DNA from: a virus | UHGV virus genome: UHGV-1600942 | DNA length: 18,186 nt | Strand: one strand, 5' to 3' | Part shown: piece by piece, positions 3,038-14,127 of the stretch | How positions within the stretch are numbered: position 1 is the stretch's first letter | Layout of the letters: the number at the start of each line of letters is the position of its first letter | Position numbers and translations under genes: made by a program | Notes under the pieces: generated by a model | The model's database searches: none | Told to the model about the DNA's origin: nothing | Seen by the model: only the letters and a program-made list of their open reading frames with translations

Positions 3038-3294
3038 TACTGTGAGTTGCGTGACGTTTCTATCTTCCTGATACTGGCCTTGTCGATGTTGCACTGGCCC
3101 AGCGCCGAAAGCAGGCTCACATTCAGATCCAGACTGGCCCCATAGGTCAGCGGGTCGGGAATGACTGGCTGGGGCGTTTCAGTGGTCAGGCTTGTTGGCA
3201 GCGGTACCGCCGGAACCGGCACGTAAACTGTTCGCGTACTTCCGCAACCGGTCAGCAGCGGCAGCAGGCACATGACGTGAAGCACAATCATCAT
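3037..3294 (-). CDS. Rz1-like o-spanin (outer-membrane lipoprotein), overlapped architecture
   Basis: Alternate frame overlapping the 3' end of Rz and extending past it. Candidate start MMIVLHVMCLLPLLTGC with lipobox LLTGC; Pro-rich mature region (PVPAVPLPTSLTTETPQPVIPDP) typical of o-spanins. Confidence 0.6.
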   Translation of the reverse strand: MMIVLHVMCLLPLLTGCGSTRTVYVPVPAVPLPTSLTTETPQPVIPDPLTYGASLDLNVSLLSALGQCNIDKASIRKIETSRNSQ

Positions 3295-3571
3295 CCGCAA
3301 CAGCCACTTTGATATCTTCCTGGGTTCTCTGTGACTCCAGTGCGATCTGCTGTTTTGCATGCTGGTTAGCCTCTATAACTGTATTGATGATTTGCAGTGA
3401 TTGCAGAACGTTACGGGTAATGGCAGTTGCTGATTCAGCATTTCGTACAGCCTCATCAGCACGCTCCTTTTCGTGCTGATATTTGCTGTAGTAATGTCCA
3501 GCAGACCAGATGAAGGAACCAATGACGCTAACAACGAAGGCAACAATAACCAGCTTATATCTCAGCCTCAT
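3179..3571 (-). CDS. Rz-like i-spanin
   Basis: 130-aa ORF directly downstream of the endolysin, overlapping its 3' end. N-terminal TM segment (LVIVAFVVSVIGSFIW) followed by a charged, coiled-coil-like periplasmic domain. Confidence 0.8.
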   Translation of the reverse strand: MRLRYKLVIVAFVVSVIGSFIWSAGHYYSKYQHEKERADEAVRNAESATAITRNVLQSLQIINTVIEANQHAKQQIALESQRTQEDIKVAVADDDCASRHVPAAAADRLRKYANSLRAGSGGTAANKPDH

Positions 3572-4446: not shown

Positions 4447-5499
4447 TTATTTCCCCACCAGTTCACTTACCTCTTTCACCGTCTGATTAAACCGCTCTGA
4501 CTCAAGTTCAACACCTAACGCCCGACGCCCCAGCGCCATTGCTGCTTTTATTGTGGAACCGGATCCCATAAAGAAATCAGCAACCAGATCACCAGGTCGA
4601 CTACTGGCATTGATTATTTGCCGGAGCATATCCGCCGGTTTCTCGCACGGATGTTTACCCGGGTAGAACTGAACGGGCTTATGCGTCCAGACATCGGTAT
4701 AAGGCACGGAGACTGATACGGAGAAATAGCGCCGGAGAGATTTAAACTCATCCAGCAATTCAGAATATTTGCGATTCAGTGAATCATAAGATGCCACCAG
4801 CTGGTGGTGTGGTTGTTCCAGTTGTTGTTCCTGAAACTTCTCTGCCGCTATACGGGAAAACAGTGCCTGTAACTTCCGATAGTCAGCCTCATTCGGCAAC
4901 TGCCACTGACTGGCACCAAACCAGTGGGAAACCATATTTTTCTTACCTGTGGCTTCGGCAATTTGTTTTGCCGTTATACCCAGTTCGGCACGAGCATCCC
5001 TGAAATACGATATCAGCGGTGCCATTATGTGCTGTTTGAGTTCCCTTTCTTTTGCCGCATAGCCGTCACTTTTGCCGCGATATGGCCCCTGGTAATGTTC
5101 AGCAAACAGAACGCGCTCTGTGGCAGGAAAATATGCGCGCAGACTTTCTTTATTACACCCATTCCAACGTCCGGACGGCTTCGCCCAGATGATATGGTTA
5201 AGCACGTTGAAACGTTCACGCATCATGATCTCAATATCAGATGCCAGGCGATGCCCACAGAACAGGTAAAGGCTTCCGGCAGGTTTCAACACCCGCCAGA
5301 ACTGGGCCAGACAGTGGTCCAGCCACTTAAGGTAATCTTCGTCCCCTTTCCACTGATTGTCCCAACCGTTAGGTTTCACCTTGAAGTAAGGCGGATCGGT
5401 AACAATCAGGTCAATGGAATCATCAGGCAGGGACTGAATAAAATGCAGGCAATCAGCGTTGATTAAATCAACACTGTTTATTTTTACAGTATTTTTCAT
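4447..5499 (-). CDS. Orphan DNA methyltransferase, beta-class (N6-adenine or N4-cytosine)
   Basis: 350 aa with motif IV DPPY (LIVTDPPYF) near the N-terminus and AdoMet-binding FxGxG (FFMGSGST) near the C-terminus. That motif order is the beta-class permutation. No restriction endonuclease partner is present. Confidence 0.85.
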   Translation of the reverse strand: MKNTVKINSVDLINADCLHFIQSLPDDSIDLIVTDPPYFKVKPNGWDNQWKGDEDYLKWLDHCLAQFWRVLKPAGSLYLFCGHRLASDIEIMMRERFNVLNHIIWAKPSGRWNGCNKESLRAYFPATERVLFAEHYQGPYRGKSDGYAAKERELKQHIMAPLISYFRDARAELGITAKQIAEATGKKNMVSHWFGASQWQLPNEADYRKLQALFSRIAAEKFQEQQLEQPHHQLVASYDSLNRKYSELLDEFKSLRRYFSVSVSVPYTDVWTHKPVQFYPGKHPCEKPADMLRQIINASSRPGDLVADFFMGSGSTIKAAMALGRRALGVELESERFNQTVKEVSELVGK

Positions 5500-5649
5500 G
5501 GATCAGTAAGCGTAACTCTGGTAGGCTCACTCTGCTTTTGCGCTAAAGCAGTGGGCCGTGGTTCGCTTGTGACCAGTAAGCATGAGCGAATGGCTGGCAG
5601 GTGCTACCAACACCCACCAGCCGCCCATTTTCACAGCAGGAAACCGCCA

Positions 5650-6172: not shown

Positions 6173-7192
6173 TTGGATAAGTTTGATGAGATTCATGTAG
6201 ACATTGAATCTGAGCAGCAAGCCTTCGATTTGCTTGAAAGCTATCTTGATGGTTATGGTTTACCTGACAGTTTAAGTTTCAACGGATGGCCAAACCTTAC
6301 CATCAGATTAACCGGTGAAAAATTCAACAGATCGCTAACACCTTCAGTTATGAAGGGATTTGTTGAAATGCAAGCTCAAATCAACAAATCATATGCCCTT
6401 GCCAAGTACGGTGTCCCTGACGTCCGCAAACTGACCAAAGAAGAACTTGATGCCCTAGAAATAGAAGTTACGGTAGAACAGGGTTCTTCAATAGTAGAAA
6501 TCAACATTGATGGCTTTTTAACCAAACTCACACAGGAACTTGTTGGTAAAATGAACGCAACTGAGATCATGTTTACTGTTCTCGGCGCAGCAGTCATCTG
6601 GGGCGGAGTAACAGTATTTAAACGGTTCTTGGACAACCGCAAAGATATTCGCCTTGCAGAAATTGCTAAGGATGGAGAGAAAGAACATCTCCGGACTATG
6701 CAGATCATGAGCGAGCAAGAAACTAAACGCCTGCGGGTTATTTCAGAAATGATTGCGGAAAAACCACTTCTCGATAACATGGACCGTATGTCGTATGACG
6801 CTAAAACCCAAATGGTCAAATCCTTTGTGCGTTCAGATAACGCTCAAATTGATGGCGTTACTATTGATTCTGAAATGGCGAAAGAGTTGGTTACGAATGC
6901 TCGTAGACGTTCATCAGAAATGAGGATTGATGGTATTTACCGAATTGAAGAAGTCAATAATACTGACCCAGAGAGTTTCAAAGTTAAGGTCCGACGCGTA
7001 GATACCGACCAACGTCTAACCTGCGTAGTTCAGGATGTTTTCCTTGATGAATCCGGAAACAAAGAAGCATTGCAGCGAGCTGAGTGGGAAAGAAAGCCTG
7101 TACATTTGAGCATTAACGCAAAACACGTCGATGGTGACATTAAGTCAGCAGTAATTCTCTATGTTCGAGATGTGGAACAAAAGCCCGAGTAA
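6173..7192 (+). CDS. Hypothetical 339-aa single-pass membrane protein (AT-rich cargo gene)
   Basis: Long plus-strand ORF on the opposite strand to all flanking phage genes. TTG start at 6173 preceded by GAGGA SD with 7-nt spacer. One hydrophobic segment (EIMFTVLGAAVIWGGVTVF) between an acidic N-terminal domain and a charged C-terminal domain. Visibly lower GC than neighbours. I recognise no family. Confidence 0.7.
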   Translation: MDKFDEIHVDIESEQQAFDLLESYLDGYGLPDSLSFNGWPNLTIRLTGEKFNRSLTPSVMKGFVEMQAQINKSYALAKYGVPDVRKLTKEELDALEIEVTVEQGSSIVEINIDGFLTKLTQELVGKMNATEIMFTVLGAAVIWGGVTVFKRFLDNRKDIRLAEIAKDGEKEHLRTMQIMSEQETKRLRVISEMIAEKPLLDNMDRMSYDAKTQMVKSFVRSDNAQIDGVTIDSEMAKELVTNARRRSSEMRIDGIYRIEEVNNTDPESFKVKVRRVDTDQRLTCVVQDVFLDESGNKEALQRAEWERKPVHLSINAKHVDGDIKSAVILYVRDVEQKPE

Positions 7193-9427: not shown

Positions 9428-9817
9428 TCAGGCGGCTGCACCCGCCGTTTTCTCGTACTTACTGATAGTGATCTCGACCTTCCCTTCCGGGATAACCGGT
9501 CCCCACTCCACCAGCATTCTTTTCACCTGACTGTCGTCTTCCCACACACCCGCGTGGGTCAGGGCGTCAAACAGCGCCTTGTTATAGTTGTCCAGATCGC
9601 GGATCCGGTTATCCGGAGGAAACAACACGATCTCCACTGAAGCAGGTGCCGACGTTGGTTTCGGCAGACGACGTAACTGCTCAACTATTGCTGCGCACGC
9701 CGCGCTCTGGAATTTTCGCCCCGCCGCGCTTATCAGACTCTTACCAGCAAACGCCCCTTTGTTGGGGTGTCGCCAGTACGTGTTCACGCTGGGCGGGAAA
9801 GGCAAGATCAGCTTCAT
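9428..9817 (-). CDS. rusA: Holliday-junction resolvase RusA
   Basis: 129 aa; motifs PPSVNTYW and RDLDNYNKALFDALT match the RusA family. GAGAGAGG SD. Confidence 0.9.
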   Translation of the reverse strand: MKLILPFPPSVNTYWRHPNKGAFAGKSLISAAGRKFQSAACAAIVEQLRRLPKPTSAPASVEIVLFPPDNRIRDLDNYNKALFDALTHAGVWEDDSQVKRMLVEWGPVIPEGKVEITISKYEKTAGAAA

Positions 9818-10140
9818 ACTTTCAGGCCTCTCTCATGTAACCAGTGGGCTGCACGCAGCCTGGCGTTTTCCTCACCGGCAAGCAGTGCGCGGATAATCCC
9901 GACCGCCTCGCTGTCGTCGTCCTTCACCGCGGTATGAAGCGTTATCCCCCGGGCCACGCCACGCTTTATCGTGATGACGCCTTTTTTCTCCAGTGCACGA
10001 AGATGCTCTACCGCTGCATTCACTGAACGGTATCCCAGCATGGTTGCCACCTCCTGATTGGTTGGCGGAAAGCCACGCTCTTTCTGGTAAGAAATCAGCA
10101 TATCCAGCACCTGCTGCTGGCATTGAGTTAACGTCGTCAT
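9814..10140 (-). CDS. LexA N-terminal DNA-binding-domain homolog lacking the S24 peptidase domain
   Basis: 108 aa; QQQVLDMLISYQKERGFPPTNQEVATMLGYRSVNAAVEHLRALEKKGVI closely parallels the LexA winged-helix domain. No Ser/Lys protease domain follows. Translationally coupled to flanking genes. Confidence 0.7.
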   Translation of the reverse strand: MTTLTQCQQQVLDMLISYQKERGFPPTNQEVATMLGYRSVNAAVEHLRALEKKGVITIKRGVARGITLHTAVKDDDSEAVGIIRALLAGEENARLRAAHWLHERGLKV

Positions 10141-10790
10141 GCCGCCATCTCCCTGACCAGTTTTTCCGCCTGCTGGCGAACCTGCACCAGAAAGGCTTCA
10201 CCACATGCCTCAAGTTCATCGCGCCCGATGTAGCTGATTGCCGGTCCCTTCCAGGTCTTGTCGAAAACAGCAATAGCACCAGCGAAGAAAGCGCCTGTCG
10301 GCACCTGCTTCTCATCCTTCGGGATAAACCAGGCAGGCAGTTCAAAACCAATACGCCCGCGAATAAAAGCAATATGGTCCGCATCTTCCGGCCACCACAC
10401 TTCGCTGGTGGCAGCTTTGATCAGGAAAACATAGCGCCCGCCCTTATCACGCATGGCACTGGCATGTTTCATGATGTAACGCATGCCGGTGATGTATTGC
10501 CCCTCATGCTGACTGGCGCGGCTGTATGGGGGATTACCAAAGGCAGCACCTTTAAGCTCCGCAAGACGTTCTGACCAGTCATGCGCCAGCGCGTTATCTT
10601 CCGCCGTGTAATACGCGGCACATTTGGCGTTATCACCGTCAGTAAACAGATCCAGAACAAACGGGCCAAACAGGGTGTTAATTCCCCAGAAAATGTTGTC
10701 CGGCGTGCGCCACTGATCGCCCACTTCCTTCAGTTCATGGGCTGGTTTGTTCCGCAATTCCACCAGCGCCTGGCAATATTTATTACTCAT
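10137..10790 (-). CDS. Phage Dam-type N6-adenine DNA methyltransferase
   Basis: Track ORF 10137..10823; likely start MSNKYCQ... at ATG 10788-10790, overlapping the upstream stop. Catalytic NPPY motif (GNPPYS). Confidence 0.85.
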   Translation of the reverse strand: MSNKYCQALVELRNKPAHELKEVGDQWRTPDNIFWGINTLFGPFVLDLFTDGDNAKCAAYYTAEDNALAHDWSERLAELKGAAFGNPPYSRASQHEGQYITGMRYIMKHASAMRDKGGRYVFLIKAATSEVWWPEDADHIAFIRGRIGFELPAWFIPKDEKQVPTGAFFAGAIAVFDKTWKGPAISYIGRDELEACGEAFLVQVRQQAEKLVREMAA

Positions 10791-11284
10791 TAAGCCCCCA
10801 CGTAATTCCCTGACAGATACCACTCTTCACCCGATGCAGCGCGCTTGCTGCTTTTCCGTAAGCACCGCTCACGACGCGCCAGAAAATTGTTTCGTTCTGG
10901 CTGGGAGTGGCTTTCACGGAATGCCGCCATCCACACGGTTGCAGCACGACGGTATAAGCCCATGGACTCCAGTTCTTCAGCCTGGCGGGTCAGGCACAAA
11001 ATCACCCGTGGATCGTTAGTGCCGACATAGAAATTGCGCACAGGTCTGGTTTCTCGAACTGGTTGTGGTTCCGGTTCCTGCGCTCTCTCAGTCAGGCGCG
11101 GGAAATGTCTGCGTGTATCTCCTTCACAACGGTGAGCCACACGCCCACTCTGACGTAACTTGCTTGCTGACTGCAGAACGCGCTGCCGTGAGTAACCTGC
11201 AAAAGCATCCGCAATGTCTCCGGAAGTACATCCCGGATGGGCTTCAATGAATTTCTGAACTTCATTCAAAAGACTCATGATCAC
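10790..11284 (-). CDS. Hypothetical protein with possible N-terminal winged helix
   Basis: 164-aa ORF coupled to the replication initiator upstream (GTG start overlaps its stop; alternative ATG at 11276-11278) and to Dam downstream. Confidence 0.6.
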   Translation of the reverse strand: MIMSLLNEVQKFIEAHPGCTSGDIADAFAGYSRQRVLQSASKLRQSGRVAHRCEGDTRRHFPRLTERAQEPEPQPVRETRPVRNFYVGTNDPRVILCLTRQAEELESMGLYRRAATVWMAAFRESHSQPERNNFLARRERCLRKSSKRAASGEEWYLSGNYVGA

Positions 11285-13452: not shown

Positions 13453-14127
13453 ATGAAAACAATCCATGACATCCGGCGGTCTAACGCCAGAAAACTGAGA
13501 GATGGTGTTGGCGGGAATTCTTCCTTTGCCACTATGATTGATCGCGAGCCAACCCAGACCAGCAGGTTTATGGGAGATGGTGCTACTAAAAATATCGGTG
13601 ACAGCATGGCACGACACATCGAAAAATGTTTCGACCTGCCTGTCGGATGGCTCGATCAAGAACACCAGACAACGAACATCACAAAAAAACCTGATGTTTC
13701 AATCACTAATAAACAAATCACATTAGTCCCTGTCATATCATGGGTACAGGCCGGAGCATGGAAAGAAGTTGGATATTCTGAGGTTGATTTGAGCACAGCA
13801 GAAACGTATCCCTGCCCTGTACCCTGTGGGGAAATGACTTATATCTTGCGGGTGATAGGTGATTCAATGATTGATGAGTACCGCCCGGGAGACATGATTT
13901 TTGTCGATCCTGAAGTACCTGCCTGCCACGGTGACGACGTTATTGCATTGATGCACGATACAGGCGAAACCACCTTCAAAAGGTTGATAGAAGATGGGAC
14001 ACAGCGTTATCTCAAAGCGTTAAACCCAAACTGGCCTGAGCCTTACATTAAGATCAACGGTAATTGCTCTATAATTGGTACAGTGATTTTCTCAGGAAAA
14101 CCAAGAAGATACAAAATCAAAGCCTAA
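13453..14127 (+). CDS. cI: CI-like prophage repressor (HTH + S24 LexA-like autopeptidase)
   Basis: 224 aa; N-terminal HTH region, Ala-Gly cleavage site (WVQAG/AW), and S24 catalytic Ser (VIGDSM) and Lys (FKRL). Confidence 0.9.
   Translation: MKTIHDIRRSNARKLRDGVGGNSSFATMIDREPTQTSRFMGDGATKNIGDSMARHIEKCFDLPVGWLDQEHQTTNITKKPDVSITNKQITLVPVISWVQAGAWKEVGYSEVDLSTAETYPCPVPCGEMTYILRVIGDSMIDEYRPGDMIFVDPEVPACHGDDVIALMHDTGETTFKRLIEDGTQRYLKALNPNWPEPYIKINGNCSIIGTVIFSGKPRRYKIKA

Follow-up and report, generated by a model that had tools for sequence, protein, structure and literature searches.

The locus analysed here raises the question of which operators a phage protein would occupy when it carries a LexA DNA-binding domain and lacks the LexA protease. 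A first-pass annotation had proposed that such a protein could sit on SOS boxes without being cleavable through RecA, or could titrate LexA. The window, the whole 18,186-nucleotide stretch that was analysed (UHGV virus genome UHGV-1600942), is a lambdoid prophage. Genes on its minus strand run in the order cII-like, O-like (replication), PerC, Dam, LexA-like, RusA, KilA-N, DUF968 and Q, and a cI-type S24 repressor lies on the opposite strand at 13453-14127. The nin-like operon setting described earlier is borne out, with all genes from the cII-like gene to Q on the minus strand. The gene and its immediate surroundings are as follows.

10149-10152, minus strand: GGAG Shine-Dalgarno sequence, 8 nt ahead of the ATG and within the 3' end of dam (read from the sequence).
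10137-10823, minus strand: upstream gene, phage N-6-adenine methyltransferase Dam (PF05869; Pfam E 1.1e-45), with a 4-nt overlap.
9814-10140, minus strand: gene of the LexA-like protein, 108 aa (ORF list, Pfam PF01726, PHROG 362, purifying selection).
9428-9817, minus strand: downstream gene, RusA Holliday-junction resolvase (Pfam E 6.1e-15), whose start overlaps the LexA-like stop (ATGA).

The open reading frame and its coordinates are as first annotated; it starts with ATG and encodes 108 aa, the stop codon being counted within the end coordinate. The TGA stop of dam overlaps its ATG (ATGA). Across 80 related loci, the 5' junction is of this dam type in about 50, and the stop codon of PerC overlaps the ATG (TAATG) in about 25. 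The stop/start overlap with rusA is present at all junctions examined in the 80 loci, and also in members with 67% (P0086), 49% (P0126) and 44% (P0131) identity. A search of the minus strand between 9300 and 11400 for promoters (sigma-70-like) and terminators returned a single weak promoter match, 3' of rusA. The LexA-like gene shares a transcript with dam and rusA and is translationally coupled to both. The operon is labelled delayed-early and rightward from the lambdoid layout, and we infer that the LexA-like protein is a delayed-early lytic product. Unlike canonical LexA, the gene has no SOS box or promoter upstream. As to autoregulation, no SOS-like site upstream of the gene was among the ranked matrix matches, and the sole nearby match (5.9 bits) falls within the coding sequence of the gene itself.

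The protein can be divided into a LexA-type head and a short tail.

9931-10140, minus strand: LexA-type winged helix-turn-helix, codons 1-70 (AlphaFold model, Foldseek to 3jso_B, phmmer to 1lea).
9985-10023, minus strand: recognition helix VNAAVEHLRALEK, codons 40-52 (LexA alignment, published contact residues, family comparison).
9832-9924, minus strand: conserved helical hairpin, codons 73-103, with helices at 73-88 and 93-103 (family alignments A1 and A4, AlphaFold secondary structure).

The Pfam profile LexA_DNA_bind (PF01726) matched residues 1-65 over its full length (profile positions 1-65 of 65, E 2.9e-19) with a score of 69 bits, the cutoff being 23.7. Among solved structures, phmmer ranked the N-terminal domain of E. 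coli LexA highest (1lea, E 6.5e-16), with residues 2-70 on 2-70 and no gaps, and BLASTP gave 43% identity to E. coli LexA across 90 residues (E 1e-21). The AlphaFold monomer model, made from 44 sequences (pLDDT 84.9), showed the winged-helix layout with helices at residues 6-22, 28-35 and 40-52 and wing strands at 56-58 and 66-68. Comparison of the model with DNA-bound LexA 3jso_B by Foldseek showed an r.m.s.d. of 1.0 Å over 68 columns at 50% identity. The fold and its register are those of E. coli LexA (1lea, 1jhh, 3jso), with 50% identity over residues 1-70, and the homology continues through the linker up to the cleavage-site position. The near residue-for-residue parallel that the first-pass annotation had noticed was reproduced in the gapless alignment and in the recognition region, which reads RSVNAAVEHL in the phage protein and RSPNAAEEHL in LexA. 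The open reading frame is a real coding gene, and its resemblance to LexA is far beyond chance.

Canonical LexA combines an N-terminal winged helix-turn-helix with a C-terminal S24 peptidase containing the Ser119/Lys156 dyad. The former is present in the LexA-like protein; the latter is absent, as the protein finishes at residue 108. The Pfam search found no match to Peptidase_S24 (PF00717) in the 108-aa protein, and no S24 remnant is present 3' of the gene, where the protein stops 38 residues past the wing and the rusA reading frame follows. This agrees with the earlier description of a protein ending about 40 residues on with no S24 domain. The score against the NCBIfam LexA equivalog TIGR00498 was 70.5 bits, below the cutoff of 110.95, and the match covers profile positions 1-91 of 203. 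A88-G89 of the LexA-like protein aligns with the LexA self-cleavage site Ala84-Gly85; however, the catalytic domain is absent, and LexA-style self-cleavage is therefore impossible. The S24 domain with its Ser119/Lys156 dyad doubles as the LexA dimer interface. LexA dimerises via this C-terminal domain (PMC3091678), and the phage protein, which is without it, would not form a LexA-type dimer. The titration of LexA that had been proposed as a second role is unlikely because the LexA dimer interface is missing.

The LexA N-terminal cleavage fragment (residues 1-84) is likewise a LexA DNA-binding domain split from the protease. Some SOS-box binding and repression have been reported for the free LexA N-terminal domain, which ClpXP must remove (PMC10584840). 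In contrast to this fragment, which is cleared by ClpXP, the phage protein runs on past this point to a folded hairpin, and the phage makes it as a product in its own right. The hairpin is also a difference from E. coli LexA, which has none. In alignments A1 and A4, the final ~35 residues form a conserved module. Relatives with as little as 40% identity retain its motif, EAxxxIRALLAxExxARxRAxxxLxxRG, and A97 and L101 do not vary across the family. The window protein carries this motif in both the alignments and the model, in which the hairpin part has a pLDDT of 87-88 and residues 71-80 form a low-confidence linker. The hairpin is too small for a core of its own, suggesting that it packs either against another copy of itself, as a four-helix bundle, or against a partner protein. 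As judged from the monomer model, it is probably a substitute dimerisation module for the missing LexA C-terminal domain.

The E. coli LexA residues contacting DNA are S39, N41, A42, E44 and E45 (PMC3091678, PMC13416735). The base-contacting residues, which the first-pass annotation had proposed to follow by alignment with LexA, are conserved at four of these five positions (S39, located just ahead of the recognition helix, N41, A42 and E45), but E44 is replaced by Val. H46, K53 and R64 are also retained from LexA. In tail-bearing relatives, position 44 is V, A, F, T, L or Y and never Glu, whereas Glu occupies it in 26 of 29 other LexA-like sequences. R28 and S63, present in 27 and 28 of the same 29, are both substituted across the tail-bearing family. 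These LexA-conserved positions (R28, E44 and S63) probably face DNA, and their changes may make the affinity or one base of the half-site differ from that of LexA; the replacement of Glu44 may have an effect on specificity. Residues 42-45 differ among family members, with NAAVEH in the window, NTIAGH in P0086 (Citrobacter), and NAATDM and NGAFEH in others. Since this variability includes the enterobacterial member P0086, one fixed SOS-box target throughout the family is hard to reconcile with it; the argument from the Citrobacter protein assumes that enterobacteria share the E. coli SOS box. Owing to the replacement of E44, R28 and S63 and the variability of residues 42-45, SOS-box binding by the LexA-like protein is rated, from sequence, as plausible and not higher.

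The gene is not new; it is a member of a prophage family that is very common and that databases already list, with annotation by homology only. The match to PHROG 362 ("transcriptional repressor") covers residues 1-108 and the whole profile (1-106 of 106, E 1.6e-59), and the RefSeq name is "LexA family transcriptional regulator". Proteins 96-99% identical are present in 50 phage records, including SfV, SfII, SfIV, cdtI, mEp460, Stx2c and some Stx2a phages, under annotations such as "LexA-like protein", "LexA DNA binding domain protein" and "SOS-response repressor and protease LexA", the last of which is wrong. The lambdoid prophages of this PHROG and RefSeq family (SfV, SfII, SfIV, cdtI, mEp460, Stx2c) keep the gene at the same position, between dam or PerC and rusA, and the window does not differ from them. 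The 327-nt gene was found in 2233 of 5426 complete E. coli genomes (41%), in up to 4 copies per genome. A survey of Stx phages gives the gene merely as a family with pfam01726 (PMC8136144), and a full-text literature search found no functional study of PHROG 362 or the LexA-like family. PADLOC returned no meaningful match for a role in anti-phage defence. What is added here is the conserved C-terminal hairpin, the purifying selection, the optional nature of a gene adjoining rusA, and the altered DNA-facing positions. Several database entries of the family are frameshifted or fused. Among phages generally, small proteins with a LexA head only are widespread (BFVD matches), and tandem double-head LexA proteins occur in metagenomes.

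The 80 IMG/VR viral loci gave 53 DNA alleles of the LexA-like gene, in which 54 variant sites are synonymous and 9 non-synonymous, with no non-synonymous site in residues 21-54. The gene is under strong purifying selection. A scan of IMG/VR with the family alignment gave loci of 98-100% identity only, which offered mosaic contexts and no added diversity. The upstream neighbour of the gene varies among Dam, PerC, a C5-methylase and a replication protein. In the syntenic phages F1055, 716R3, ST147-VIM1phi7.2 and YeP1, Dam is followed directly by RusA and the LexA-like gene is absent, and in the Edwardsiella phage EPP-1 the LexA-like gene and rusA are not adjacent. The LexA-like gene is an optional, portable accessory gene.

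Candidate operators were scored with a position weight matrix of 20 E. coli SOS boxes from the literature, which are not a curated set; the canonical motif of such boxes is CTGT-N8-ACAG. One strong LexA-type candidate was found in the window.

5472-5491, minus strand: near-consensus SOS box TACTGTAAAAATAAACAGTG, codons 3-9 of a late-region DNA methyltransferase (4447-5499), matrix score 22.7 bits.

The maximum across 100 shuffles was 18.4 bits. CTGT..CAG of this box is invariant in 9 homologues down to ~70% nucleotide identity, including those of Hafnia and Providencia phages. Third-codon positions are held while the intervening amino acids change, so the box is very likely a functional site. 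By organism name, the phages with the box region (phiP27-like Stx2a phages, phiNP and a Providencia phage) are not among the LexA-like matches listed, and SfII and SfIV, which carry the LexA-like gene, are not among the box matches listed. A specific pairing of the LexA-like gene with the methyltransferase box was therefore rejected, as each appears to occur without the other by organism name. The presence of the box in phages apparently without the LexA-like gene indicates that it is first of all a site for host LexA. A structured RNA in the conserved methyltransferase leader was also considered and rejected, with no Rfam match and an unfavourable covariation term in RNAalifold.

In the 80 related loci (885 kb), 40 sites reach 16 bits or more. 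Some fall within the gene of a 230-aa cI-type repressor, in its linker codons; others are found at the start of the methyltransferase, ahead of a moron (an additional gene that has a promoter of its own) transcribed divergently, or in the interval separating rusA from a KilA-N gene. In about 42 of the 80 loci no strong SOS box lies within 6 kb, and the matrix scan found no strong boxes in the loci of distant family members. No exact palindrome with 6-nt arms in the LexA-like/rusA module is common to four subfamilies, and a search of the window for one-base variants of CTGT with AT-rich spacers of 6-10 nt showed no convincing palindrome. An excess of CTG-N10-CAG (15 versus 4.7 expected) was discounted, since E. 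coli uses the codons CTG and CAG often and dinucleotide-preserving shuffles do not retain codons.

The explanation that we favour, though only tentatively and with less than even confidence, is that the LexA-like protein is a RecA-insensitive stand-in for LexA and occupies SOS-type operators during lytic growth. The hairpin would replace the LexA C-terminal domain as dimeriser and place two winged helices on a palindrome. Retention of S39, N41, A42 and E45 points to a CTGT-like half-site. Most likely, the protein would repress in trans during lytic growth, at operators of the SOS type carried by the host, by co-resident prophages and by the phage's own genome. The protein would act after cleavage of host LexA, or while phage replication generates the SOS signal, and the bound promoters would be uncoupled from RecA. 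A portable gene with no linked operator fits a trans-acting factor. The case for a stand-in is based on this portability, on the four retained contacts, and on the repression that the bare LexA N-terminal domain is reported still to exert; the frequent SOS boxes in related phage loci and the one strong box in the window were also counted in its favour. Counted against it were the family-wide change of Glu44 to hydrophobic residues, the replacement of R28 and S63, the variability of residues 42-45, the absence of a strong box from about 42 of the 80 loci, and the precedent of GIL01 gp6, which binds its own palindrome and activates. Thus, of the SOS-box occupancy without RecA cleavage that had been proposed, the insensitivity to cleavage stands with the absence of the catalytic domain, but the occupancy is left at plausible by the altered DNA-facing positions and the lack of a consistently linked SOS box.

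Gp6 is a 66-aa truncated LexA homologue of GIL01, a tectivirus of Bacillus thuringiensis. From its site GaCACAnnTGTGaC, a palindrome overlapping the -35 element, it activates P3, a late promoter (Fornelos et al. 2018, PMC6182141). It is the only characterised truncated LexA homologue and the closest characterised analogue of the LexA-like protein. Like the latter, it is a phage-encoded LexA DNA-binding domain without the catalytic domain, and it is an early-gene product. However, gp6 has no C-terminal hairpin, and late control in the window phage is exerted by the Q antiterminator. BLASTP found no alignment between gp6 and the LexA-like protein at E <= 100. As the two share no sequence similarity, each LexA head was probably captured independently, that of the window phage from a LexA of proteobacterial type. 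The first-pass annotation had mentioned neither the conserved hairpin nor this precedent of a private operator combined with activation.

By analogy with gp6, the captured LexA head may have re-evolved for a non-SOS site, borne by the phage or the host, and may switch a specific lytic promoter on or off. The family-wide alteration of E44, R28 and S63 and the variation of residues 42-45 among members fit such a regulator, as does the gp6 precedent, in which the palindrome is a different one and the target is a late promoter. The LexA-like gene lacks a consistently linked SOS box, and the PHROG and RefSeq class is that of a generic transcriptional regulator only, both of which are compatible with a private operator. 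However, neither the LexA-like/rusA module and its flanks nor the CTGT-variant scans of the window contain a conserved palindrome that could serve as one. Mosaic flanks and the optional nature of the gene would often part the regulator from a target in cis, the late genes are already served by Q, and the window allele retains four of the five LexA contact residues. We regard a private operator as the main rival, somewhat less likely than the stand-in for LexA.

An accessory role in recombination, in which the LexA-like protein is not a transcription factor and aids RusA by tethering or modulating the resolvase on DNA, would account for the position of the gene directly 5' of rusA, with the 4-nt overlap conserved even in members of 44-67% identity while the upstream neighbour changes. 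However, RusA homologues of 60-80% identity follow straight after Dam in F1055, 716R3, ST147-VIM1phi7.2 and YeP1, which lack the LexA-like gene, indicating that RusA has no need of the LexA-like protein, and the two genes are apart in EPP-1. To our knowledge, RusA does not require a partner. This role is improbable.

Still less probable, to a degree that makes it hard to credit, is a decoy. The homology to LexA reaches residue ~90, and the tail segment IIRALLAGE aligns with the cleavage region LVGRVAAGE, placing its Ala-Gly pair on A84-G85. The segment could thus dock in the active site of an S24 protein (LexA, UmuD or a cI-type repressor) or be cleaved in trans, altering the rate of RecA-driven inactivation. 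The Ala-Gly pair is, however, lost in distant members (TR, SG, DD, AC, AE, AD) and is Ser-Gly in one E. coli allele. IIRALLAGE is modelled as a helix and not as a strand, and the LexA C-terminal domain required for heterodimers is absent. Least likely of all, and very unlikely, is a non-functional remnant of a captured lexA, for which the protein being shorter than LexA and the frameshifted or fused database entries could be cited, against the excess of synonymous sites (54 to 9), the tail kept to 40% identity, the intact translational coupling, and the presence of the gene in 41% of complete E. coli genomes.

None of this would surprise a phage specialist. Which operator the LexA-like protein binds would matter for SOS control in a large share of E. 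coli lysogens. If the protein has a private operator, it would be the second case after GIL01 gp6, and probably an independent one, of a LexA head serving as a dedicated phage regulator, here with a dimerisation tail of its own. If the protein binds SOS boxes, a large share of E. coli strains, including lysogens of Stx2c, cdt and Shigella serotype-converting phages, would have a factor able to uncouple the SOS regulon from DNA damage on induction of the prophage concerned. Such binding would matter for the induction of prophages by antibiotics, for the release of toxins from strains that harbour several prophages, and for SOS mutagenesis. Taken furthest, the RecA-insensitive stand-in leads to a speculative and rather doubtful proposal: about 40% of E. 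coli genomes would hold a RecA-proof LexA substitute in a prophage, and lysis by that prophage would re-repress SOS-box promoters in the service of prophage competition and host takeover. If true, the LexA-controlled antirepressors of rival prophages, the SOS-induced toxins and the prophage's own LexA-controlled genes would be silenced.

Two adjacent features lie at the start of a methyltransferase gene in the late region.

5472-5491, minus strand: near-consensus SOS box TACTGTAAAAATAAACAGTG, in the DNA methyltransferase gene of the late region (4447-5499), codons 3-9
5500-5625, minus strand: non-coding leader 5' of the methyltransferase gene

Sequence comparisons showed that the CTGT..CAG of the box is unchanged in nine homologues with nucleotide identities down to ~70%, and that third-codon positions are likewise conserved. 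The box and its conservation suggest that the phage methyltransferase gene is controlled by LexA or bound by LexA at this candidate site. The leader is more conserved than the coding start in phages of E. coli, Klebsiella, Citrobacter, Hafnia and Providencia. Two hairpins are predicted for the leader, but with an unfavourable covariation term in RNAalifold, and comparison with Rfam gave no match.

A weaker SOS-like site, an over-represented sequence pattern and an additional open reading frame were also found in the window.

3484-3503: weaker SOS-like site TGCTGTAGTAATGTCCAGCA, 15.3 bits by the SOS-box matrix, inside a 130-aa ORF (3179-3571)
6173-7192, plus strand: 339-aa ORF between the antiterminator gene Q and the late genes, on the opposite strand to them

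The weaker site scores higher than roughly 95% of the shuffle maxima, and the surrounding ORF lies in a region that seems to hold the lysis genes. The pattern CTG-N10-CAG occurs 15 times in the whole window against 4.7 expected from dinucleotide-preserving shuffles; rather than a set of binding sites, this excess probably reflects codon-usage bias (CTG, CAG). The 339-aa ORF matches PHROG 6191 (unknown function), with no match in Pfam or PADLOC, and is an uncharacterised moron-like gene.

The LexA-like protein was also aligned with the cleavage region of LexA.

9874-9900: segment GIIRALLAGE, codons 81-89 of the LexA-like gene, aligned with LVGRVAAGE of LexA

The Ala-Gly of this segment sits at the position of LexA A84-G85, and its conservation is lost in distant family members. 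In eight metagenomic proteins (P0133, P0134, P0148, P0151, P0154, P0157, P0161 and P0164), two LexA DNA-binding domains are arranged in tandem without S24; these would amount to single-chain 'dimers' of the LexA head, another way of making up for the lost dimerisation domain.

SOS boxes occur at three further places in related viral loci.

L010 3095-3114 and L035 2330-2349: box in a cI-type repressor gene, in 18 of the 80 loci
L046 6765-6784, also L081: box in the 150-nt gap from rusA to a variant KilA-N gene
L019 10349-10368, also L076: box TACTGTTTATGCATACAGCA, just 5' of a small divergently oriented gene

The first lies in a 230-aa HTH+S24 repressor gene, within its linker codons 'SNTVYKNSN', and is the same or nearly the same as the umuDC box (TACTGTATATAAAAACAGTA); this prophage repressor gene contains a predicted LexA site. 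The L019 box adjoins sequence shared with a window region that we read as the late promoter and its terminator, and the small divergent gene may be a LexA-controlled moron. The window has a 19-nt gap between rusA and the KilA-N gene, without an SOS box, and the box in the longer gap suggests that a KilA-N or antirepressor-like gene is under LexA control in some relatives.
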